Shown here piece after piece: positions 3 to 13,475 of a stretch of 64,000 bases of DNA (positions are counted from its first letter, which is position 1; the number at the start of each line of letters is the position of its first letter). The stretch comes from an uncultured Desulfospira sp. (lineage in GTDB: Bacteria > Desulfobacterota > Desulfobacteria > Desulfobacterales > Desulfobacteraceae), in contig OY760175.1 of the NCBI GenBank assembly GCA_963663165.1, positions 3,776,001-3,840,000 of the forward strand, given 5' to 3'. The notes under the pieces were generated by a model. That model made no database searches and was not told the origin of the DNA. It saw only the letters and a list, made by a program, of their open reading frames with translations. A program made the translations under genes and the position numbers.

Positions 3-860
3 CCGGTAAAAATCAAGCTTAAGCTAAGATCAGCGGAAGATTACCTGGGCGAAAGTTTTGGTGACAGGCAGATCCTGTGCGTCTATCGACCCAGTGCAGC
101 CAATAAGAAATCTGGATGTACGGAAGATTTCAACAACACGGTGGCCCATGAATTGGGCCATATGTTCAACCAGACGCCGAAACCGGCGGCCAAACCGCCT
201 TCATTAAAAGACCACCCATTCCAGTACGTGGGCCACGGCGGCTCAGGCTCCCATTGCCGGAACAACGCCCAGGCAGGGGCCACCGGCGGCGTAGGCGTCT
301 ACAGCCGGAATTTTAAATCCAAGATTACGTCAAAACATAACGGAACCACTTATCTATTGGCGGATACCAGCGGATTTATTAAAGGGCATGAGGTAAAGGT
401 GAACGGCGTGATAAAGACCATAAAGACCGTGTATAATGATGGGCTGGAATTTGATGGGCCAAATTTTGACGCACCTGTAGACTCAGTCGTTGAACAAAAA
501 TTTGATGAAGGTCTGGCAACAGGCAAGGCCCAGACAACCATCACCCATGCCGGTGCCAATACCAGTACACACCGGGTGGCCAATTCAAGGCACTTTGCCG
601 TGGGCGAAACCGTTCAGATCGGGGCTGAAGAAAGGGTCATAGCGTCCAAGCCGAGCAATACCCAAATCAAATTCACCGCCCCCATCACAACCGCTGTTAA
701 TGCAAAGGTGGTGTCCAAGACAGACTGGAACAATCCAAGGCAGAACTACCCAAGGCCACTAGACGGGGATTGTATTATGTACCACTCATTCAGCGAGAAA
801 TGTTCAAACAAATTCTGCGACACCTGTAAACCATACCTGCAACTTCAGGAAATGACATAA
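3..860 (+). CDS. C-terminal part of a zinc metallopeptidase-like protein (5'-truncated by window edge)
   Basis: Frame open from position 3 (PVKIKLKLRSAEDYLG...). Contains AHELGHMF (HExxH) and C-terminal CIMY...FCDTC (Met-turn and CxxC, as in archaemetzincin-like proteins). Confidence 0.65.
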   Translation, partial: PVKIKLKLRSAEDYLGESFGDRQILCVYRPSAANKKSGCTEDFNNTVAHELGHMFNQTPKPAAKPPSLKDHPFQYVGHGGSGSHCRNNAQAGATGGVGVYSRNFKSKITSKHNGTTYLLADTSGFIKGHEVKVNGVIKTIKTVYNDGLEFDGPNFDAPVDSVVEQKFDEGLATGKAQTTITHAGANTSTHRVANSRHFAVGETVQIGAEERVIASKPSNTQIKFTAPITTAVNAKVVSKTDWNNPRQNYPRPLDGDCIMYHSFSEKCSNKFCDTCKPYLQLQEMT

Positions 861-939
861 AAGCCCCCTGTAATTCATGGTGCCCGGTTAAAACCGGATA
901 AAGATAAAACAAAACCCCAAAACAGAACAAGGACAATAT

Positions 940-1968
940 ATGGCCACTGCAAATGATATCATTGAAAAAATATTGGGCTTTGAAGAAAAGGATTTCTACG
1001 AGGATGACCCGCCGGGTATGGAAATGCGCGAAGAGCAGCTGCTTGACCTGGATTTTTTCGGGGTAGCGGTCAATGCCCCGTCCCGGATCGAGACCCTGGA
1101 AAAGGGAGACCTGCCCCTGATCTTGGCCGCCCGCTATAGCGGTGACCGGGACTGGGAGACACCCCTTGACCGCAATTGTATCCTGTTTGGCACCAACATG
1201 CACGACGGCACGGTAGCGTTTGCCAAGGCCTTTGTCGATGAAAAAGCGCTTCAAGACCGCGGCATAAAAGAGATCGGCCCCAAAGGGCCAAAACCGCCGG
1301 GCCTGGCCACGGCAGCCGTCCAGCTGACCCGGCTGGCCCCCAAGGACCGTCTTGGCATTGCCTGGGACACCGGGATCTGGGCTCTGGGCGTTATCAACTA
1401 CGACTGGCCTTCCAATACCGTGACCGTGGAACTTGCGGGAGAGGGGGAGCCAAAACCGATATTTGCCAAACCCGTTTCCCCGGAACCTGATCCAAGAGGA
1501 GAAGACCATTTCCCCTGCTACCTGCCGGTTTCCGACACCCCAAAACCGCCGGAGTCCGGCCTGTCGGTTGCGGTTGAATTTTACGAACGGGAGGGGCGCC
1601 AGCATCTGGACCTGACAGGGGCTTTTGGGGTAACCATCCGAGAGCTTCACCTGCCTGAAATTCCGATTGAACAACCCTATGCCAAGGGGGGGGAAAAAAC
1701 CGTGGCCGCGGTGGTTCCTTTGACCCTGGCTGTTTTGGGAGCCAACTGGGATGAGCCCCTGCAATTTAACTGGGCTGTCCCTGTTTACGGCAGTTCCCTT
1801 GAGGTTGGAAAACAGGCTTCAGGGTACTTTGCCCTGAATGCCCTGGCCGGGGCCCGACCCCTTAATCCGGGAAAACACCTTTGCTACCTTTTCCTGGACG
1901 GCGGGATATACGGCCCTTATGGCTTCACTGTGCCGGAAATACCGAGTTTGCCAAAGGTAAACCGCTAA
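940..1968 (+). CDS. hypothetical protein (342 aa), possible partner/immunity protein of the upstream peptidase
   Basis: Long ORF with AAGGA RBS; acidic and Pro-rich; no recognisable family. Confidence 0.7.
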   Translation: MATANDIIEKILGFEEKDFYEDDPPGMEMREEQLLDLDFFGVAVNAPSRIETLEKGDLPLILAARYSGDRDWETPLDRNCILFGTNMHDGTVAFAKAFVDEKALQDRGIKEIGPKGPKPPGLATAAVQLTRLAPKDRLGIAWDTGIWALGVINYDWPSNTVTVELAGEGEPKPIFAKPVSPEPDPRGEDHFPCYLPVSDTPKPPESGLSVAVEFYEREGRQHLDLTGAFGVTIRELHLPEIPIEQPYAKGGEKTVAAVVPLTLAVLGANWDEPLQFNWAVPVYGSSLEVGKQASGYFALNALAGARPLNPGKHLCYLFLDGGIYGPYGFTVPEIPSLPKVNR

Positions 1969-1993
1969 AAAATTAACCATAGGGGGGCCGGCA

Positions 1994-3484
1994 ATGGCCC
2001 GGACACGTCCGGTAAAAATCATTTTTTTGATCCTGGGTCTCATTCTCTGGTTTCCCGGGGAGGGGCATGTGAGCGGATCTTTCAGTACAACCTGGGGCGA
2101 CCGGTATTTCATTATTCATTTTGATAACCAGCGCCATAAAATCTACCGCCCGGAAACGGATGTGGACGGTTTGTACCGGCAGTTTCAAAAGAATTTTCTG
2201 TCAATGGTTGAGGAACAGTCCTCTAAAAGAGATAATCTGTTTGAACAGGCCGGTGCCAGAAAAATCCCCGTAACCGAGATCCGGCTTAAGTGGCCGGAAA
2301 TGGTGCTGCTCTCCCCCGATGACATTGAACTGATCAACCCGGCCTCTTATCCGCTGCTGTTGTGCCTGCCGGTCCAGCCGGATAACGGCAGGGGGCTGTA
2401 TCATTTTAAACTGGCATTGACCGGACCTGTCCCTGCCCGCGATCTGGAATGGCTCCACAAAGAGTTGACCCAAATGGTGTCGAAAAACGATTCCTGTCCG
2501 GACGATGATGAGATACCGCTAAACACCATTGACCTGGACGATTACCCCTATGTCAATGTGATACAAACCTATACCGGACATGCCCTTTACGCGGGCACGT
2601 TATTCCATGTGGCCCGGGACCAGACCGATTTTTTCCGGGACCAGCTCACGGCATGGATGGATCGCATCGGCCCTGAGCTGAATCGGGAAGTGAGCTGCCC
2701 CGCATTTGAAAAAGAGACCGGGGCCCACCTTATTTCGATGGACGCTGTATTTGGAAAAGACCAGGGCCTTTGTTCCGGAAACTTTAATCCCTGGGGGCCC
2801 ATTCAGGATGAAGCCCAGGGAATATCTTTTTTCCGGCCCCGGGCGCAAAGCCCCAATACCATTGTTACAGCCCTGTTTGCGGCAAAAACGGATCAATGGG
2901 GGGGACTTTCCGAACGGATCACAGGGCTTTTAGAAAAACTGACCCAGGCCAACCCGGAACAGTGGCGATCGGTCAGGACCGACCTTATGATCATGCAGCT
3001 GAACGGCAAGATTGAGGGATCACCCTACTATTTTGAGCCGGACGTTCTGGATAAAGGCCGGATGGAAAGCGCGTTGTCAACCCTGCTGAACAACAGCCAG
3101 AAAACCAAGGAAGCCCAACGGAACGCCATGGACCAGCTGGCTTATCTGGTGGACCAGAGAACAACCGGCCAGACCATCCAGGCCATTGTCCAATACTTTG
3201 CATCCCCCAAAAACGAATATTCAGACCTGGCCCAGGTCATCCAGGTGCTGGGAAAAATCCGTTCCACCCCGTCGGCCAGGGCCCTGATCGGCCTTTATCT
3301 CGACAGGCCCTTGTCCGACAGCGGGGATACTTACTTCCTGCGCCAGGATATCCTCACCGCCTTAAAATCCACCGGTCTTCCGGCCATAACGCTTATAGAA
3401 GAGGCCCTTGCCCGGGAAAGCATCCAGCAACAACCCTTGCGTGTTGAGGAGCTGACCGCCGTGCTTAAAGCCCTTACCCGTTAG
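1994..3484 (+). CDS. exported hypothetical protein with C-terminal HEAT-like helical repeats
   Basis: 496 aa; N-terminal basic + hydrophobic signal/anchor (KIIFLILGLILWF); C-terminal VIQVLGKI...ARALIGL...ILTALKSTG.PAI pattern. Confidence 0.65.
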   Translation: MARTRPVKIIFLILGLILWFPGEGHVSGSFSTTWGDRYFIIHFDNQRHKIYRPETDVDGLYRQFQKNFLSMVEEQSSKRDNLFEQAGARKIPVTEIRLKWPEMVLLSPDDIELINPASYPLLLCLPVQPDNGRGLYHFKLALTGPVPARDLEWLHKELTQMVSKNDSCPDDDEIPLNTIDLDDYPYVNVIQTYTGHALYAGTLFHVARDQTDFFRDQLTAWMDRIGPELNREVSCPAFEKETGAHLISMDAVFGKDQGLCSGNFNPWGPIQDEAQGISFFRPRAQSPNTIVTALFAAKTDQWGGLSERITGLLEKLTQANPEQWRSVRTDLMIMQLNGKIEGSPYYFEPDVLDKGRMESALSTLLNNSQKTKEAQRNAMDQLAYLVDQRTTGQTIQAIVQYFASPKNEYSDLAQVIQVLGKIRSTPSARALIGLYLDRPLSDSGDTYFLRQDILTALKSTGLPAITLIEEALARESIQQQPLRVEELTAVLKALTR

Positions 3485-3485
3485 T

Positions 3486-5495
3486 TTACCCCGCCAGAAC
3501 ATGATCCACCATATCCTTTAATTCCCCGGCGGTCAGAATTTGGATGTTCCGTTTAAACACAGGGTTGATGGCGTCCAGGTCGGCCTTGTTTTTTTCCGGA
3601 AAAATCACGGTTTTAATCCCGGCCATTTTGGCGGCCAGCACTTTTTCCTTGATCCCGCCCACGGGCAGAATCCGGCCGCTTAAGGTCAACTCCCCGGTCA
3701 TGGCCGTATCCCTGCGGCAGGGGATCCCCTTTAGCAGGGACAACAATGCCATGGCAATGGTCAGGCCGGCTGACGGTCCGTCTTTGGGGATGGCCCCGGC
3801 CGGCACATGGATATGGATATCCTGCCCGCTGAAAAAATCTTCAAAAAGGCCAAAATCCGTTGTATGGCTTCTGATATAGCTCAAAGCCGCCTGGGCTGAC
3901 TCTTTCATGACATCTCCCAAAGAGCCGGTGAGAATCAGCTGGTTGGTTCCGGCCATTTTCGTGGTTTCAATAAAAATAATTTCGCCGCCGGTTTCGGTCC
4001 AGGCAAGCCCTGTGGCACACCCGATCCGGTCTTTTGCCCCGGCAATTTCGAAAAAGTAACGGCCTGCGCCCAACAGCTCTTCAACCATCTTCTCGGTAAT
4101 GGTGATCTCGGTGTCCGTGGACAGGACCTGCTTGATAATCTGCCGGGTGATTTTCCGGCACACGGCATATATTTTTCTTTCCAGTTCCCTTAAACCGGCC
4201 TCCCTTGTATGCTCGCGAATAATTTTTTTTAAGGCATCTTCCTCAAAAACAACCTGAAACGAACCTAAGCCGGAATCATCAATGGCCCTGGGAATCAAGT
4301 GCCTCTTGGCGATATTGACCTTTTCCCCTACGGTGTATCCGGACATATGAATTACTTCAAACCGGTCCAGCAAGGGCCTTGGGATCCGGGCCACGGTATT
4401 GGCCGTTGCAATAAACATGACCTTTGACAGGTCATAAGGAACATCCAGGTAGTGGTCCATAAACCCTGAATTCTGGTGGGGGTCCAGCACCTCAAGAAGG
4501 GCTGAGGCCGGATCTCCCTTAAAGTCCTGGCCGATTTTATCAATTTCATCGAGCATGAACACCGGATTGCCCGATTCTGCCCGCCGGATTTCCTGGATAA
4601 TCCGTCCCGAAAGGGCCCCCACATAGCTTCTCCTGTGCCCCCTGATATCGGCTTCATCCTTCATGCCGGCAAGAGAGATGCGGACAAACTTTCGCTTAAG
4701 GCTCCTTGCAATGGATTTGCCAAGAGAGGTTTTCCCGATGCCGGGAGGGCCGGTAAAGCAAAGGACCGGGCTTTTGGCATCCACCACCCCGGTTTTTTTA
4801 TCCAGGGCCAGCTTGACCGTCGAACGGACCTCGTCCAGTTTCAGGGGCTTGGCCAGAAAATGAAAAGACCCCCTTTTGATGGCGTCCACAGCCGTCAAGA
4901 CCGTTGCATAGCCGGTGATGATGATGACCTCGGTGGACGGGCTTAATTTTTTAACCCGGTCCAGCAGGGTCAGGCCGTCAATCTTATCCATTTTCAGGTC
5001 TGTGATCACCAGGTCAAAATGCTCTTTTTCAAGGAGATCTAAAGCCTCGCTGCCGCTGTCCGCACTGCTGACCTCATACCCTTCTTTTGACAGCACATGG
5101 GTCAGGTTCCGCCGGGTCATCTGCTCATCATCAACGATGAGAATATTGTTTTTGGCTGAGAGCTTCATCAACCGGACCGCCAGATGTTCCAGGATCCTTT
5201 CCTTGATTTCTTCAAGCCCGTAGTGATCTTTGTTGAGGACATCCTCTGCCCTGGCCATATCCAGATTATCTTCGGTATAGGCATTCCACGGCAGGGTGGT
5301 CAGATAATCAATATAGTTGATGCCAATGGTATACTCCGCCGATGAGGGACTGATTTTGGACAGCTTGTCCACTTCCTTGAGAACCAGCTTTTCCACAGCC
5401 TCAGGCATCTTTTTGTCCATGACATTCTGCCGGATTTCTTCAACTTCCGACGGTTCCGGTTCCTGGTCTGTATCTCGTTTGAAAATTCCCTTCAC
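3486..5495 (-). CDS. lon: Lon (endopeptidase La) lacking the N-domain, with an inserted response-regulator receiver domain
   Basis: GTG start with AAGGA RBS; DHYGLEEIKERILE; Walker A GPPGIGKTS; RGHRRSYVGA; Walker B MLDEIDK; KDGPSAG (Ser) and VGGIKEK (Lys) dyad; REC at aa ~117-232 (ILIVDDE, LVITDLKM, ITGYA, AKP). Confidence 0.93.
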   Translation of the reverse strand: MKGIFKRDTDQEPEPSEVEEIRQNVMDKKMPEAVEKLVLKEVDKLSKISPSSAEYTIGINYIDYLTTLPWNAYTEDNLDMARAEDVLNKDHYGLEEIKERILEHLAVRLMKLSAKNNILIVDDEQMTRRNLTHVLSKEGYEVSSADSGSEALDLLEKEHFDLVITDLKMDKIDGLTLLDRVKKLSPSTEVIIITGYATVLTAVDAIKRGSFHFLAKPLKLDEVRSTVKLALDKKTGVVDAKSPVLCFTGPPGIGKTSLGKSIARSLKRKFVRISLAGMKDEADIRGHRRSYVGALSGRIIQEIRRAESGNPVFMLDEIDKIGQDFKGDPASALLEVLDPHQNSGFMDHYLDVPYDLSKVMFIATANTVARIPRPLLDRFEVIHMSGYTVGEKVNIAKRHLIPRAIDDSGLGSFQVVFEEDALKKIIREHTREAGLRELERKIYAVCRKITRQIIKQVLSTDTEITITEKMVEELLGAGRYFFEIAGAKDRIGCATGLAWTETGGEIIFIETTKMAGTNQLILTGSLGDVMKESAQAALSYIRSHTTDFGLFEDFFSGQDIHIHVPAGAIPKDGPSAGLTIAMALLSLLKGIPCRRDTAMTGELTLSGRILPVGGIKEKVLAAKMAGIKTVIFPEKNKADLDAINPVFKRNIQILTAGELKDMVDHVLAG

Positions 5496-5589
5496 TTGGT
5501 ATCTTCCTTTGGATTTTAACTGTTAGCGGTTAGCCATTAGCTGTCAGCTGTTCTCAATATTCTGCTGTTACCAGCTTGAATCAAAGGTC

Positions 5590-5605
5590 TGCAATTAGTG
5601 TGCCC
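5590..5605 (-). promoter_or_regulatory. sigma-54 (-24/-12) promoter for lon
   Basis: Minus strand GGGCACACTAATTGCA = GG-N10-GC, near-consensus TGGCAC-N5-TTGCW, about 95 nt upstream of the lon start. Confidence 0.75.
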
Positions 5606-5742
5606 GGCAAGAAACAAGAAGCAAGAGACAGGAGACAAGAGATGGGAAGGGAGAAAGACCGGCTGGTTGTGTTTTGGATTAAACCCCACATAAATCCCAT
5701 CAGCCATACCCGTTGCAAATACACGTAAAGGGACAGGCGGCT

Positions 5743-5843
5743 ATTTCATTTTGCAACAGACTATTGTTAACTGCAATACACCGGTACCTGCCCAAATTTT
5801 AAGGGAAACTCAAGGTTCTGCAACACCCGTTACAATCTGCAAC
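5743..5843. promoter_or_regulatory. enhancer-binding-protein sites, two pairs of GTTGCA-N3-TGCAAC-like palindromes
   Basis: ATTTCA-TTT-TGCAAC (5743), ATTGTT-AAC-TGCAAT (5763), half site TGCAAC (5819), GTTACA-ATC-TGCAAC (5829). Pairs are 19-20 bp apart, between two divergent sigma-54 promoters. Confidence 0.6.
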
Positions 5844-5931
5844 AAACCCAAGCGGCCCGTTTTCACCCCCCCATTCATCTGGACAAGAAAAAATATTTTG
5901 AATTCAGCGTGTTAGAGAGATATAAAGCCAC

Positions 5932-5947
5932 TGGTATACATCTTGCT
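5932..5947 (+). promoter_or_regulatory. sigma-54 (-24/-12) promoter for the USP-like/permease operon
   Basis: TGGTATACATCTTGCT = GG-N10-GC; an AT-rich IHF-like segment lies upstream (~5887-5914). Confidence 0.75.
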
Positions 5948-5997
5948 CAAAGGTTGGAGAGAAAATAAAATCAACCTGAACCTTAAGGAGACTGATC

Positions 5998-6549
5998 ATG
6001 GCATTTTTTACCGCACTAAAAGACAAAGTAATCAGCTTGAACAAAAAAATGGACGACTGCCAGGAAGCCATCACCTTTTCCATGGCCGGCGTGGACCAGG
6101 ATACCGACCATATGCTTTCCTGCAAGGAAGACCAGGGGAGGAACCTGGTGGTGGCCACCCAGGAGAGCCGGTTTACGGAGGATATGATTACCTATGCCTT
6201 AGAAATGGCCCAGCGCATGGACTACAATATCATTGCGGTGAATGCGGCCAACCTCACCCATGAGGTCACAGAGTTCTTTTCCAGCACCCAGGAGAACCTT
6301 TATAAAGAATTTATCCAGACAGCCAATGAAAAAATCCTGGATTTTAAGGAAAGGGCTGAGGCTTTGGGAATTAAATTTGCACATTCCACCCATTTTTCGA
6401 ACACGGATCATGCCATTGACGAAATTTCCAAACAATGCGGCCAGGTGGAATTCATCATTACGGAAAACAGGGAAAAAGCCCCCCTGCGCAATGAAGTTGA
6501 AAATACCCAGCGCATTGCCCAGCGCCTGTGCGTCTACTCGGTCAACTAA
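5998..6549 (+). CDS. universal-stress-protein-like (USP fold) hypothetical protein
   Basis: AAGGAG RBS; RNLVVA...ITYALEMAQRMDYNIIAVN...FKERAEALGIKF...HAIDEISK...VEFII matches USP secondary-structure pattern. Confidence 0.65.
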   Translation: MAFFTALKDKVISLNKKMDDCQEAITFSMAGVDQDTDHMLSCKEDQGRNLVVATQESRFTEDMITYALEMAQRMDYNIIAVNAANLTHEVTEFFSSTQENLYKEFIQTANEKILDFKERAEALGIKFAHSTHFSNTDHAIDEISKQCGQVEFIITENREKAPLRNEVENTQRIAQRLCVYSVN

Positions 6550-6639
6550 CGGCCACGGGCCGTCTTGGTTATCCAACCAAGAACCGCCCACAACAAATAA
6601 TGAAAGTCTTCTCAGGAGGTTAGTGAGACTTTCATATAA
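6547..6639 (+). repeat. 90-bp two-hairpin repeat, copy 1
   Basis: TAACGGCCACGGGCCG...GAGACTTTCATATAA; near-identical to 39515-39697 (x2) and 52847-52939 (reverse). Confidence 0.9.
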
Positions 6640-6718
6640 AAAAAGCAAAAAGGCAAATATCCACCAGCTAATTGCTAAAAGCTAATAGCTAACAGCTAAT
6701 TAAAAAAGGAATTTCACC

Positions 6719-6827: not shown

Positions 6828-8641
6828 ATGACACCTGAGATGATTATAACCATGCTGGTCCTCGTTTTTGTTATCTGCCTGTTTATTTTTGAATGGGTCC
6901 GGGTAGACGTGGTCGGCATTATGATGATGGTCCTGCTCCCCCTGATCGGAGTTATCAGCCCCAAAGAGGCCTTTGTGGGCTTAAGCAGTAACGCGGTATG
7001 CTCCATTATTGCCGTTATTATTATTGGCGCCGGATTAGACAAGACCGGTGTGATGAACAAAGTGGCCAAACCCATCCTGGCCCTGGCCGGAAAAAGCGAA
7101 AAGAAAATCATGGTACTGGTGGCCGGCACCGTCGGGGTGATTTCCAGCATGATGCAGAACATTGGCGCAGCCGCCCTGTTCCTGCCAGCCACCCAGCGGA
7201 TATCCAAGCGGATCGGCATCCCCACCTCCCGGATTCTGATGCCCATGGGATTTTGCGCCATTATCGGCGGCACCCTGACCCTGGTCGGGGCAAGCCCCAC
7301 CATCCTGCTCAATGACCTTATGGTCCTGGGCGGCGAAAAACTCGAACCCTTTGGGCTGTTTACCCAGACCCCCATCGGGATCTGCCTGATCCTGACCGCC
7401 TTGATTTATTTTGTGGTTTTCGGCCGGTTTGTCCTCCCCTCAAGCTCGGGAGACCAGGGCAAAGGCGCCACGGAAGTCCTGATTAAAGAGTACCAGGGGG
7501 TCAACAGCATTGTGGAAATGCATATCCCCAAAGAAAACAGCACCACAGGTATTCTTGACGATCTGAACATCCGGCCCCGGTTCCTGGTCACCGTTATCGC
7601 CATCAGTTCCCCCACCGAACGGACCACCTCCCATGTCCCCCACAGCTATGAAAAAATCCGCCCCGGGGATGACATTGCCGTGGTGGGCAGAAAAGAACAC
7701 ATCGAACAGCTGGCAAAGGATTACGGCTGGCAGGTCAAAGACAGCCTTGAGACCTTTGCCGAAAGCCTGGCCAACACCAACGCGGGAATGGCGGAAACCG
7801 TTGTCTCCCCCCGCTCGGAACTGATCGGCAAGACCTTAAACGAAGTGGATTTCAAAGAGCTGTTCGGGTTAAACCCCCTGGTGCTGTTCAAGAACAACCG
7901 AAAGTACTACAGCGGCCTGACCAATATCCGTCTGGATATGGGGGACACCCTGTTGCTCCAGGGGCCCTGGGAAAAATTTCACATATTAAAGAACCGGCCC
8001 CAGCCCAGGGCGCTGATCTTTGCCTCCCCGCTGGAAGGCGAAATTTTAAGGCCCAAGAAAGCGGCCCTGGCGCTGGTCTGGCTGGCCATTGCCCTGCTTC
8101 AGATTATCGTATTCAAGGTTCAGTTGTCTGTGGCCCTGATGTCCGGGGCACTTGGCATGATCATTACCGGGGTTCTCACCATTGACGAAGCCTACCAGTC
8201 CGTTGACTGGATGACGGTGTTTCTGCTGGCCGGGCTGATACCATTGGGCATTGCCTTTGAGAAAACCGGAACCGCTGCCTTTATTGCCAAAACGGTTCTG
8301 GGACTGATCGGCACGCCCTCGCCCATTATGCTTTTGGCCGTAATCGGCATCATGACATCCTTTTTTACCCTTGTCATTTCCAATGTCGGGGCAACCGTCC
8401 TGCTGGTGCCGTTGTGCATGAACATGGCGGTCATGGCCGGGGGGGATCCGAGAATGGCGGCCCTTGTGGTGGGGCTGTCCGCATCCAACACCTTGTTTTG
8501 CCCACCCACCAGGTCAATGCCCTGATCATGAGGCCTGGCGGATACCGGACCGTGGACTATGCCAGGGCAGGGGCCGTCATGACGGTTCTGTTCCTTACGG
8601 TGGAATTGACGGTGATCTACTTTTTCTACGGAATAGGATAA
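6828..8641 (+). pseudogene. SLC13/DASS-family permease with two TrkA-C domains, frameshifted near the 3' end (real or sequencing error)
   Basis: GGTLTLVGASPTILL motif, central TrkA-C pair, ISNVGATVLL. At ~8493 acc-ttg-ttt-tgc lacks one T; the conserved end LPTHQVNALIMRPGGYRTVDYARAG is in another frame ending at 8641. Confidence 0.85.
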
Positions 8642-8724
8642 GGTAAATAGTCTAAACCCCTTCAGCCTAATCCCCTAAATTCCTTAACTTGCATGATACC
8701 GGTAAAGACTGTAAAGTATTTTCA

Positions 8725-10170
8725 ATGAAACTCAAACTCAGACAAAAAATATTCCTTCATTTTTTGATTTTTATGGCAGTGAACGGCGCCATATGGCTTT
8801 TCAACTATTACAGCAACTCCCAGATCAACCAGAAACTGATCATCATTGAAAAAAAGAAAGACCTGTTAGACACCATCCTTGAAGCCCGGCGGTACGAAAA
8901 AAACTTTTTTTTAAGAAAAGACACCAAAGACCTGGCCCAGGCCCTGGTGTATATTGATAAAACCGCTCAAAAACAACAGGCCATTGAAAGTAATTTTGCT
9001 GAGCTGCTCCTGGACCTGCCCTCTTTGACCCAGCGGACCCGGCTCATTGAAGAATACCGGAAAAACACCCAGATGCTTTACGATCTGTGCAGTGTTGATG
9101 CCGGCAGTTTTTCAGGGGAGGAAAAAATCAGCGAAATCCGGGAGGTGGTCACCCGGATCGGCCGCCAGCTGACCACGGATATCGAACAGGTGGAAAAAAA
9201 GGAAAAAGAGCAGGTCTACTATCTGCTCAATATTTCCCGAAAATACCTGGTGATCTCCCTTGTCTCCCTGGTTCTGCTCACGCTGCTCACCGTATTCTTC
9301 CTGGTCAGAAACGTGAACCGGCCTCTTAAAAGCATTGAAGAGGGGATCCAGCGCATTGCCGACGGGGAGTTTGACCAGATCCCCAAACTGATGACCGGAG
9401 ACGAATTCGAGTCCCTTTCCGACAGCCTCAACCACATGATCCAGGAGCTGGATAAAAGACGGGACCAGCTGGTCCAGGCGGAAAAGATGTCATCCCTCGG
9501 GACCCTGACCTCGGGGGTGGCCCATGAGCTGAACAACCCGTTAAATAATATTTCCACCTCCATCCAGATCATCAAAGAAGAAATCCATGATCCGGATATT
9601 GAGTTTAAAGTCAATTTGCTTTCCGATGTGGAAGAGCAGGTGGACCGGGCAAGGGATATTATCCGGGCCCTGCTCGAATTTTCCAGGCAAAGTGAATTTT
9701 CAACGGAACCGGTGTTGTTTAAAAACCTGGTGGGCAGCACCATGCACCTGATCTCAAGTGAAATTCCGCCGGATATAGACGTGGTCATTGATGTGCCAAA
9801 GGACCTGGAAGGGAACATGGATCCCCGGCGGGTCCAGCAGGTCCTTTTAAACCTGATCATCAACGCCGTCTATGCCATGGAACAAGGCGGCACCCTGACC
9901 ATTTCCGCCCATAAAGAAGAGACGGGTGCCTTTGTCCTTTCGGTGGCAGACACGGGCCAGGGAATCCCCAAAGACCACCTGGCCAAAATATTTGATCCGT
10001 TTTTCACCACCCGGGATGTGGGCAAGGGGTCGGGCTTAGGACTTTCCATCATTCATGGTATTATTGAACAGCATGGTGGCATCATCGACGTTGAAAGCAA
10101 CGAGGGAAAGGGAACCGTCTTTACCATTCACCTTCCCCCTGCCGGCCACAGGGAGCAGCCGGATTGTTAA
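8725..10170 (+). CDS. membrane sensor histidine kinase (2 TM, HAMP, HisKA, HATPase)
   Basis: H-box [11 protein letters not shown]-box [29 protein letters not shown]. Confidence 0.95.
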
Positions 10171-10260: not shown

Positions 10261-11613
10261 ATGGCTTACCACATTCTGATCATAGAAGATGAAAAAATAG
10301 CACGGACCAACCTTGAGCATATCTTTGTCAAAGAAGGGTACCGGGTCACGGCCACAGAAAGCGGGGTCAAGGGGCTGAACCTGATCAAATCCAAAAGTTT
10401 TGACCTGATCATCACGGATTTTAAAATGAAGCAGGTGGACGGCATGCAGATTTTAGAGCAGAGCCGCCAGCTTCAGCCATACACCGAAGTCATCATGATC
10501 ACGGGATATGCCACGGTGGACAATGCCGTAAAGGCCATGAAAGAAGGGGCCTATCATTACATCGCCAAGCCCTATAAAATTGACGAGGTCCGGCAGACCG
10601 CAAAGGAAGCCCTGCTCAAGCGCTCTTTACAGCTTGAAAACATTGAACTGAAAAACGCCATGAGAAAGGAAGGCCTGTTTCCCCGCATCATCGGCAACAG
10701 CCCGGCCATGGAAGAGGTCAAAAAGACCATCCGGCAGGTGGCAACAACAGATATCAGCGTCCTGATCCTTGGGGAAAGCGGAACCGGGAAAGAGCTGGTG
10801 GCCAAGGCCATTCACAACTTAAGCCACCGACACAAAAATGAAATAGTGGCCTTTAACTGCGGGTCATTTTCAGAAGACCTCATGGCCAATGAACTGTTCG
10901 GCCATGAAAAAGAAGCCTTTACCGGGGCGGCCAGGGCCAAAAAAGGGCTGTTTGAAACTGCAGACAAGGGAACGGTGTTTTTTGATGAAATCGGAGACAT
11001 GCCCCTTTCCATGCAGGTCAAAGTGCTGAGGGTAATCCAGGAAAAAGAACTTATGCGGGTGGGCGGCACCCATAACATTCCCATAGACCTGCGCTTCCTG
11101 GCCGCCACCCACCGGGATTTAAAGCATGAGGTGGACAAGGGCCGTTTCCGCCAGGACCTGTATTTCAGACTGAATGTGGTCACCATTCAGCTGCCGCCTC
11201 TGACAGAGCGCCATGGGGACATTCCGTTGCTGGCCTACCATTTTTTAGGCAAAAAAAACCGGGAAATGGGAAAAGACATTAAACAGATCGATAAAACCGC
11301 CATGGATTTTCTGGTCCGGTACGGCTGGCCCGGCAATGTCCGGGAACTTGAAAATATCATTGAACGGGCCGTGGCCATGGAAAACGCCGACACCATTTTT
11401 CCTGAAGCCCTGCCCGGCCATATCACCCAGCTGGCCGTTGAAACTTACCGGGAAGCCCCGGACGGCAACATTCCCACCATGAAAGAGCAGGAAAAGAAAT
11501 ATATTTTATGGGTATTGGAAAAAACCAACTGGAACAAAACAAAGGCCGCCGAAATCATGGCCATTGACCGGGTCTCCCTGTGGCGTAAAATTAAGGCTTA
11601 TAAGCTGGAATAG
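10261..11613 (+). CDS. sigma-54-dependent response regulator (NtrC/ZraR family)
   Basis: REC; GESGTGKE; ELFGHEKEAFTGA (GAFTGA-like loop); FRQDLYFRL; WPGNVREL; Fis-type HTH. Confidence 0.95.
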   Translation: MAYHILIIEDEKIARTNLEHIFVKEGYRVTATESGVKGLNLIKSKSFDLIITDFKMKQVDGMQILEQSRQLQPYTEVIMITGYATVDNAVKAMKEGAYHYIAKPYKIDEVRQTAKEALLKRSLQLENIELKNAMRKEGLFPRIIGNSPAMEEVKKTIRQVATTDISVLILGESGTGKELVAKAIHNLSHRHKNEIVAFNCGSFSEDLMANELFGHEKEAFTGAARAKKGLFETADKGTVFFDEIGDMPLSMQVKVLRVIQEKELMRVGGTHNIPIDLRFLAATHRDLKHEVDKGRFRQDLYFRLNVVTIQLPPLTERHGDIPLLAYHFLGKKNREMGKDIKQIDKTAMDFLVRYGWPGNVRELENIIERAVAMENADTIFPEALPGHITQLAVETYREAPDGNIPTMKEQEKKYILWVLEKTNWNKTKAAEIMAIDRVSLWRKIKAYKLE

Positions 11614-11708
11614 CTTTTTAGGCTGAAGGTTGATAGACTGAAGACTGAAAGTTGTCCGACCTCAGCCTTTTTAACCCAACCCCCTTGCAGGAGCATCGAC
11701 ACTCTCCC

Positions 11709-13475
11709 ATGGCCTCCATTTTTAGAAAAGCTGCTCCGGTTCATGCGGGCCCTTCAGGAATCAGGATATTTCCCTTTCTTGCCTGGATGAACCGGCTCAA
11801 TGCCGGCAGTCTTAAAGCAGACCTGTTAGCCGGATTGACCGGTGCCTTTATTGTGCTTCCCCAGGGGGTTTCCTTTGCTATGATTGCCGGGCTTCCGGCA
11901 GAATACGGCCTTTATGCCGCCATTGTTCCGCCGATTATGGCCGCCCTGTTCGGCTCATCCAGGCACCTGGTGTCCGGCCCCACCACGGCCATATCCATTA
12001 TTGTCTTTTCCACCTTAAGCCCCCTGGCAGAACCCGGCTCAGCCGACTATATCCGGCTTGCCCTGACCCTGACTTTTATGGCCGGATTTTTCCAGCTGAT
12101 GTTCGGCCTGATCCGGCTGGGCACCCTGATCAATTTTGTTTCCCACTCGGTGGTGGTGGGGTTTACCGCAGGCGCGGCCCTGCTCATTGCCACATCCCAG
12201 CTCAAGCATGCCCTGGGGATCCCCATCCCGGGAGGCACGTCTTTTGTCAGCACCTGGGTGCTGATCTTTAAATCCGCCGCCCATATCAGCCCTTATGAAA
12301 CCGGGATTGCCCTGGTCTCTCTTACCTGTGCCGTGGTGTTCAAAATTTTAAAGCCCCGGTGGCCGGGGCTGCTGTTCGCCCTGGTGGCCGGGAGTCTTGT
12401 CAGCATCGCCATTAACGCACCGGACCATGGGGCAAGGCTTTTGGGAGAACTGCCCGGGCGGCTTCCCCCGGTGTCCTGCCCGGATTTTACCATGGATACC
12501 TTGGGAATGATGGCCCCGGGGGCCTTGGCTGTAGCCTTCTTAGGCCTGATTGAAGCCCTGTCCATTGCCCGGGCCATTACGGTCCAGTCCGGCCAGCATA
12601 TCAACGGCAACCAGGAATTTATCGGCCAGGGCCTGTCCAACATGGCCGGCGCCTTTTTTTCAGGATATGCCGCCTCCGGCTCCTTTACCCGGTCCGGGGT
12701 CAACTACGATGCCGGGGCCGTCACCCCCCTGGCCGCCATCTTTTCAGCCCTGTTCCTGGCCGGAATTATCCTGCTGGTTGCCCCTTTGACGGCCTTTTTG
12801 CCTTTATCCGCAATGGGCGGGGTGATCTTATTTGTTGCCTTTAAGCTCATCGACGTTGCCCACATCAAAGAAATTCTTAAGAGCAGCTGGCCGGACACCC
12901 TGGTGCTGGCCGTTACCTTTGCCGGAACCCTGTTTTTCCCCATTGAATTTGCCATTTACACCGGGGTTTTGCTATCCCTTGCCATATACCTGACCCGGAC
13001 CTCCCATCCCCATGTCACCGTCCTGACCCCTTCCAAAAATGAACTGGTCAATGCCAAAGAAACCCCATCGGCCCAATGCCCCCAGACCACCTTTGTCCAA
13101 ATCAACGGCTCCTTGTTTTTCGGGGCGGCAAGCCATGTGGCCGAAGCCCTGGAAGAGATTGACAAGGAAGATCCGGGCCACCTGATCATCGTGGGGTACG
13201 GCATTAACTTCATAGACATTTCCGGGGCCATGGTCCTGGTTCAGGAGGCCGGCCGGCGGCGCAAAATGGGAAAAACCCTTTTCCTTTGCCGGATCAACCC
13301 GGAGGTAAAAGCGTTTCTTTTACACGGGGATTTCATGAACGAAATCGGGGAAGACCATCTGGTTGACACAGAGCGCCAGGCCATTGAAGCCTTGTTCAGC
13401 CAGCTGGACCCACAGGTCTGCTTCGGCTGCTCAAAAAAAATTTTTAAACAATGCAACTCTTTGGGCTCACCCTGA
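11709..13475 (+). CDS. SulP/SLC26 anion (sulfate) transporter with STAS domain
   Basis: DLLAGLTGAFIVLPQGVSFAMIAG, PAEYGLY, GSSRHLVSGPT, NQEFIGQG, STAS (GSLFFG, FIDISG). Confidence 0.93.
   Translation: MASIFRKAAPVHAGPSGIRIFPFLAWMNRLNAGSLKADLLAGLTGAFIVLPQGVSFAMIAGLPAEYGLYAAIVPPIMAALFGSSRHLVSGPTTAISIIVFSTLSPLAEPGSADYIRLALTLTFMAGFFQLMFGLIRLGTLINFVSHSVVVGFTAGAALLIATSQLKHALGIPIPGGTSFVSTWVLIFKSAAHISPYETGIALVSLTCAVVFKILKPRWPGLLFALVAGSLVSIAINAPDHGARLLGELPGRLPPVSCPDFTMDTLGMMAPGALAVAFLGLIEALSIARAITVQSGQHINGNQEFIGQGLSNMAGAFFSGYAASGSFTRSGVNYDAGAVTPLAAIFSALFLAGIILLVAPLTAFLPLSAMGGVILFVAFKLIDVAHIKEILKSSWPDTLVLAVTFAGTLFFPIEFAIYTGVLLSLAIYLTRTSHPHVTVLTPSKNELVNAKETPSAQCPQTTFVQINGSLFFGAASHVAEALEEIDKEDPGHLIIVGYGINFIDISGAMVLVQEAGRRRKMGKTLFLCRINPEVKAFLLHGDFMNEIGEDHLVDTERQAIEALFSQLDPQVCFGCSKKIFKQCNSLGSP

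Follow-up and report, generated by a model that had tools for sequence, protein, structure and literature searches.

To our knowledge, wherever two-component signalling has been linked to proteolysis, the link runs either through transcription or through separate adaptors. CpdR (for ClpXP) and RssB are receiver-type protease adaptors, separate proteins that deliver substrates, and among the Lon proteases archaeal LonB lacks an N-domain and is anchored to the membrane through an insert in its AAA+ domain. The closest described system is that of Nitratidesulfovibrio (Desulfovibrio) vulgaris Hildenborough, in which DVU3303-3305, a Lon protease, a kinase and a sigma54 regulator, were described as a "three-component system" with a proposed gating by phosphorylation (Rajeev 2011, PMC3333781). 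In Trotter 2023 (PMC10102598), mutants of DVU3303-3305 show a cofitness above 0.9 with the same sign, Lon, kinase and regulator all being detrimental in chlorate, and the transporter DVU3299 is needed in chlorate (fitness -2.3). Table S5 of the same paper gives a depth in the JW710 library of 0.19 for DVU3299 and 0.13 for DVU3300 with 1.4-1.6 for their neighbours, which is a hint only, being one library with no error estimate. Table 1 of Kazakov 2015 (PMC4641369) has the D. vulgaris Lon operon without a sigma54 promoter. These three papers and one preprint version are all that a search by locus tag returned for DVU3303, and the literature searched, with most subscription papers outside its coverage, held no biochemical assay of the phosphorylation or activity of such a protein.

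Here we describe a Lon gene with an inserted receiver (REC-Lon) in a window of 64,000 nucleotides from an uncultured Desulfospira sp. (GCA_963663165.1, contig OY760175.1, positions 3,776,001 to 3,840,000). It was originally predicted to be a protease that is itself a response regulator, and similar annotations were said to exist in Desulfovibrio genomes. This was right: DVU3303 (AAS97772.1, Q725X1, P0393; 702 aa) is orthologous, with 46% identity over 669 aa, collinear and without a gap at the insert. REC-Lon thus joins a family on record since 2011, when its gating by phosphorylation was also proposed, and what is added here is the conservation, the linker lengths, the shared REC clade, the N-terminal motif and the alternation of TauE and CitMHS transporters.

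A receiver within a LonA core

The gene starts with GTG, preceded by AAGGAAG, and encodes an N-terminal motif, a three-helix bundle, the REC insert, the AAA+ module and an S16 protease domain, in that order (Table 1). Pfam finds Response_reg at residues 118-227 (E 2.7e-30), AAA at 245-383, Lon_lid at 408-456 and Lon_C at 466-668, and the Lon N-domain model is absent from the 12 Pfam matches. The protein scores 722 bits against the lon model TIGR00763 (cut-off 608), split over two stretches, and 98.6 bits against TIGR00764, far under its cut-off of 516.6. When aligned with B. subtilis Lon (3m6a), residues 10-114 match 2-106 and residues 240-669 match 106-532; as the match breaks at a single point of the subject (residue 106) while some 126 residues of the query are skipped, the insertion is a clean one. 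The same length of 126 residues follows from a measurement of spacing: a conserved motif and the P-loop are 140 residues apart in 120/120 homologues and 14 apart in those two LonA paralogues of the same genome that the pattern could measure. This pattern misses 26 of the 51 loci considered below, and the linker lengths given there come from alignment instead. The insert lies just before Walker A, after the helix ending LAVR and before the strand running into that motif, which refines the predicted site.

The functional residues named in the prediction are likewise all in place. The receiver has the acidic pair D122 and D123, the phosphoacceptor D166 (nt 4998-5000), the switch residue T194, F213 and K216-P217; the AAA+ module has Walker A K255/T256, Walker B D316/E317, pore loop Y291, sensor 1 N366, Arg finger R378 and sensor 2 R436; and the Ser-Lys dyad S575/K618 stands in a PKDGPSAG context. 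An AF2 monomer model built on a 145-sequence alignment (pLDDT 82, pTM 0.71), which supersedes an earlier one from 32 sequences (pTM 0.44), can be laid over 516 residues of MtaLon 4ypl at 2.2 A, in keeping with a native Lon core, and its insert superposes on the NtrC1 receiver 1zy2 over 125 residues (Z 23.2, 1.8 A). REC-Lon shares the three-helix bundle, the AAA+ module and the Ser-Lys protease with the LonA enzymes of B. subtilis (3m6a), M. taiwanensis (4ypl) and E. coli (6u5z), but it lacks their N-terminal globular domain, long helix and tyrosine gate and carries the 126-residue receiver that they do not have. The insert itself has the fold and all the phospho-site residues of NtrC-family receivers (NtrC1 1zy2, AtoC, ZraR), although it is internal rather than terminal and sits on the AAA+ ring of a protease rather than of a sigma54 activator. 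Like archaeal LonB, REC-Lon has no N-domain and has an insert in its ATPase region; unlike LonB it is of the LonA type, its insert is a receiver and no transmembrane helix is predicted, no hydrophobic 19-mer of the protein exceeding the threshold.

An assembly chimera had been named as a possible refutation. Contigs of the runs X1 and X2, which come from the probable source sample, cover 3400-6571 with zero differences, and a contig from another study (X4) runs through 3778-5400, differing by 114 substitutions but free of gaps; since the contigs of two studies cross both junctions of the receiver, REC-Lon is not a chimera. Thus we confirm that it is a real LonA core with a complete receiver and without the N-domain. 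On the other side of the gene, positions 141-3484 of the window hold three plus-strand ORFs (239, 342 and 496 aa) without a Pfam match, convergent on the Lon stop.

Table 1. Features of the REC-Lon locus, with positions in the window
Feature	Position	Strand	Basis or remark
REC-Lon gene (DVU3303 orthologue)	3486..5495	-	669 aa; Pfam, TIGR00763, structure alignment
Lon protease domain	3489..4055	-	S575 (nt 3771-3773), K618 (nt 3642-3644)
AAA+ module (~residues 243-480)	4056..4769	-	Motifs invariant in 145 aligned sequences
Inserted NtrC-type receiver (residues 117-233)	4797..5147	-	Pfam, alignment, model match to 1zy2
Three-helix bundle of LonA, retained (~residues 17-67)	5295..5447	-	Model helices 17-28, 32-47, 53-67; superposes on 4ypn
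N-terminal aromatic-basic motif (residues 1-7), [FILW]-F-x?-[KR]	5475..5495	-	Marks the true start
Sigma54-like -24/-12 site facing the Lon gene	5591..5605	-	1 mismatch; weak alone
Predicted DVU3305-type regulator palindrome, GTTGC-N5-GCAAC	5829..5843		1 mismatch
Sigma54 -24/-12 site facing the USP-like/transporter/kinase/regulator operon	5932..5946	+	Exact pattern match
USP-like protein, probable DVU3301 counterpart	5998..6549	+	183 aa; size, gene order
CitMHS/SLC13-type anion transporter with TrkA-C domain	6828..8641	+	Pfam
Membrane sensor histidine kinase, DVU3304 counterpart	8689..10170	+	Two predicted TM helices, HAMP, HisKA, HATPase
Sigma54-dependent response regulator, DVU3305 counterpart	10261..11613	+	REC-AAA-HTH

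Distribution, conservation and the short N-terminus

At E<=1e-30 a search with the junction region picked up 1369 proteins out of 8000 candidates, and all 120 matches listed contain both receiver and AAA; absence of the insertion from homologues had been named as a possible refutation. REC-Lon is found in 18 of 61 related genomes and in 47 of 401 genomes of a sample of the phylum, one of which (G061; C19, C10) has two copies. A profile of the junction alignment run against 1.84 billion representatives was dominated by multi-receiver proteins and was excluded from the results, and a scan of viral contigs gave 11 pattern matches, none of them to a relative. From GTDB genomes 77 loci were taken; REC-Lon is present in 50 of these, and with the window added the set counted here comes to 51. 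By the titles of their records the loci belong mostly to Thermodesulfobacteriota (31) and Nitrospirota (9); six are labelled Deltaproteobacteria only and are Myxococcota by NCBI ranking. In one Nitrospirota MAG (L055:7013-9029) REC-Lon seems to be divided into two ORFs, split just past Walker A. In a quick tree with a small outgroup, a branch separates the 46 cores long enough to be used from the four other LonA of the Desulfospira genome (SH-aLRT 99), which is consistent with a single origin of the family.

The phosphoacceptor D166, whose loss from homologues would have counted against the prediction, is kept in 120/120, 30/30 and 120/120 proteins of three sets. D123, N130, D166, K216 and P217 are invariant in 145 aligned sequences, as are the Walker A and B residues, Y291, N366, R378, R436, S575 and K618; conservation is inflated in loci L031-L107, whose retrieval patterns contain phospho-Asp or TGYAT motifs. 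A second, Desulfovibrionales-centred set (n=120) has S575 in 115/120 (4 gaps, one Pro). Position 213 is Tyr or Phe in 120/120 proteins of the first of the three sets. Mean column agreement is 0.78 for the receiver versus 0.76 for the protease domain. The linkers on the two sides of the receiver are of nearly fixed length: L105-D123 has 18 residues in 145/145 and 120/120 sequences, and P217-G249 has 32 in 143/145 and 113/120.

The absence of the LON N-domain, also part of the original prediction, was followed beyond the gene itself. The N-domains of the four other Lon genes of the genome gave 0 matches in the window, in 107 loci and in 120 homologues (P0002-P0121), and the positive control gave 12 matches in the own genome; a split or frameshifted N-domain upstream of REC-Lon is ruled out by these searches. 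The four LonA used are full-length proteins with N-domains (790-821 aa), encoded near 1.617, 2.192, 3.462 and 5.620 Mb.

In place of the N-domain, the aromatic-basic motif of Table 1 opens the protein in 50/50 loci with an intact start, the same loci from which the pattern was derived, and is followed by a variable linker. Among database proteins it is found in 116/120 and 115/120 (the latter with a slightly wider window); the exceptions are for the most part proteins with short or incomplete starts, and the background is 7% of random 35-aa windows. Two readings of the motif are open. Short membrane anchors are known from proteins such as MinD and FtsY, and by analogy the motif may be an anchor of this kind, which six copies in a hexameric ring would reinforce. 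Alternatively, it may be a relic of the aromatic gate on the long helix of LonA: in the REC-Lon loci the aromatic pair stands 63-76 residues ahead of the xPW motif, a distance that reaches 91 among the proteins of the second set, and the gate pair of LonA stands 73-74 residues ahead of it. The gate is Y224-Y225, and Phe can replace Y224 (PMC8519571).

The start of REC-Lon falls near that of the engineered AAAP construct of MtaLon (242-793). MtaLon without residues 1-241 retains ATPase, peptidase and casein degradation and loses degradation of damaged proteins (PMC8087443). From this similarity we infer that REC-Lon should be a regulatory rather than a quality-control or housekeeping protease, which would degrade exposed or disordered tails and not misfolded proteins.

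Receiver type and possible control by the kinase

Kinase and regulator genes are both present in 41 of the 51 loci, and in 19 of the 22 loci flanked by at least 7 kb on each side; the other 3 of these 22 have no nearby copy. Among the receivers of the Desulfospira genome, the closest to that of Lon is the receiver of the neighbouring regulator (51% vs at most 45% for the others). Helix 1 of receivers is the surface that determines kinase specificity, and N130 in this helix, a residue absent from the patterns used for retrieval of the loci, is found in 51/51 Lon receivers and 42/42 partner receivers versus 1/185 other receivers of the genome. Likewise, position 170 is not Pro in 49/51 Lon and 39/42 partner receivers versus 14/185 others. 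In a quick tree of 120 columns, with the best-scoring 60 of the 185 own-genome receivers as background, Lon and partner receivers form one clade (SH-aLRT 95), and the Lon receivers alone are not resolved as one. The N130 signature and the common clade point to one shared kinase, and the simplest reading of these sequences is that the insert would be a relative of the partner's receiver that still reads the same kinase. Fine pairwise co-evolution left no signal, since the identity of Lon receivers to their own partner is barely above that to other partners (50.6% vs 48.6%) and the own partner is best in 2/42. The regulator of the window has EAFTGA instead of GAFTGA; of 40 partner regulators, 13 have the same Glu and another 5 have Asp in its place.

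We favor, as somewhat more probable than its competitors taken together, the reading that the kinase phosphorylates D166 and thereby switches on a narrow-specificity ATP-dependent Lon, which would be its second response regulator. REC-Lon has intact AAA+ and Ser-Lys sites and an intact receiver, and it has no N-domain. Very probably the kinase has two targets, the sigma54 regulator and Lon D166, since their receivers are closely related and have helix-1 residues in common at the kinase-contact surface. With a helix before it and the strand of Walker A after it, the receiver is probably fixed in place, so that phosphorylation would act allosterically, on ring assembly or on the ATPase, most likely turning proteolysis on; the linker after the receiver (235-239), with pLDDT <50 in the model, does not by itself establish a rigid coupling. 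The idea that phosphorylation may gate ATPase, assembly or substrate entry, also part of the original prediction, is not new for a Lon with a receiver, as Rajeev 2011 proposed the same. The direction of the switch is taken from the same-sign knockouts of D. vulgaris, which could be polar: the published coordinates place DVU3303 at the head of its operon, with a 4-nt overlap into DVU3304, so that the cofitness could be polarity, and the word "polar" is absent from the main text of Trotter 2023 (PMC10102598).

If the favored reading is true, a kinase controls a protease ring directly, via a receiver wired beside Walker A, and REC-Lon would offer a natural handle on how assembly and substrate entry of a LonA are gated without the N-domain. 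The testable predictions added here are the shared kinase, coupling by fixed geometry, the N-terminal motif and the transporter as a co-sensor (see below), for which D. vulgaris is a tractable host with the chlorate phenotype already there.

We consider it unlikely that the receiver is instead a built-in substrate adaptor or docking site, comparable to CpdR or RssB, in which phosphorylation alters binding and not the motor. REC-Lon resembles these adaptors in that receiver phosphorylation is predicted to be tied to ATP-dependent proteolysis, and differs from them in having the receiver within the protease chain itself. With the N-domain gone another recruiting surface would be needed, the receiver is conserved about as well as the protease domain, and the linker C-terminal to it is low in model confidence; however, the near-fixed linkers on both sides suit mechanical coupling better than a tethered adaptor, and the conserved surface is also found in the DNA-binding regulator, as a kinase contact would predict. 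Less plausible still, to our minds, is a role of the protease in negative feedback or as a phosphate sink, in which it drains phosphate from the kinase or degrades kinase or regulator, the shared phenotype in D. vulgaris being a polar artefact. The position of Lon first in that operon with the 4-nt overlap would allow this, and a regulator site that in several loci is very near the Lon start, together with the lack of a D. vulgaris sigma54 promoter in the published table could mean repression; on the other hand, a pure sink needs no invariant ATPase and protease sites, and all three knockouts are of one sign as published. It is highly improbable that a constitutive or vestigial truncated Lon carries the receiver as a passenger, or that the gene is an assembly chimera, in spite of the patchy presence and the four other Lon genes in the genome, as the phospho-site residues are invariant, the junction matches all join receiver and AAA in the 120 listed, and the contigs of two studies refute the chimera.

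Neighbouring genes and regulatory sites

The locus resembles that of DVU3303 in the identical insert site, the lack of the N-domain, the N-terminal motif, the linked kinase and sigma54 regulator, the divergent USP-like and transporter genes and the regulator palindrome. It differs in that Lon is transcribed alone and divergently, with kinase and regulator following the transporter, and in that a sigma54-like site faces Lon, whereas none is reported for DVU3303. The transporter probably differs too: here it is of the CitMHS/TrkA-C type, and DVU3299 is probably a TauE, judged from its size and from gene order in Desulfovibrionales loci.

The 450 bp ahead of REC-Lon contain the regulator palindrome, a motif taken from Table S7 of Rajeev 2011 (PMC3333781), in 32/46 loci, compared with 0/46 coding controls, and in L041, L048, L089 and L057 it lies at -31 to -50 of the Lon start; window-wide its count is at chance level (2 found, 2.36 expected). 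A sigma54 site facing the divergent operon is found in 24/45 loci versus 1/45 controls, and one facing Lon in 8/46 versus 0/46. Two Desulfobacter loci have a site like that of the window in a comparable place; the window-wide count of the sigma54 motif equals chance.

The USP-like gene is present in 47/51 REC-Lon loci, and its assignment is based on Atlas clusters with 13-20% Usp members and on weak Usp matches in relatives. The USP-like proteins of the window and of the CitMHS-type loci (L031-L034, L056, L079, L085, L095) have a conserved AxxFAEAG motif, and many of them have an aromatic-basic, amphipathic-looking N-terminus. The transporter is TauE in 29 of the 51 loci and CitMHS/TrkA-C in 14, with neither in 8 and both in 0, TauE being called by motif with Pfam confirmation on three examples. 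In the window the transporter appears frameshifted (565 vs 604 aa), which is an assembly error, as the X1, X2 and X4 contigs have an extra T at 8492.

We speculate that the substrates of REC-Lon may lie within its own module, namely the USP-like protein, the transporter, the kinase or the regulator, and that the aromatic-basic motif could help to position the protease at the membrane or the mouth of the pore. A joint reading, which we put forward tentatively and think rather doubtful as a whole, would combine the Lon ring as a direct allosteric output of the kinase with the transporter as an inhibitory co-sensor and an N-terminal peptide replacing the N-domain. Loss or challenge of the transporter would then make the kinase activate regulator and Lon ring together, Lon activity would be the costly output, and the peptide would either anchor the ring to the membrane at six points or be a flexible remnant of the aromatic gate on the long helix. 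This would explain the opposite knockout signs in D. vulgaris of the transporter versus Lon, kinase and regulator, for which a regulator that did no more than activate the transporter would hardly account.

Several further genes and elements accompany the locus. A cytidylate-kinase-like gene (PF13189; cluster of 13) is found in about one quarter of the loci (L034, L041, L044, L048-L050, L052, L071, L079, L085, L086, L089), and a small membrane protein lies ahead of TauE in 17/51. A SulP/STAS permease is encoded at 11652-13475, 3' of the regulator, and is not a core part, since a partial SulP match near REC-Lon occurs in one further locus of the 51 (L057) only. Multi-copy intergenic repeats lie at 6546-6642, 6660-6705 and 5520-5550, blastn matching the first two 280 and 49 times in the genome, and the X4 strain lacks the stretch 6550-6703.
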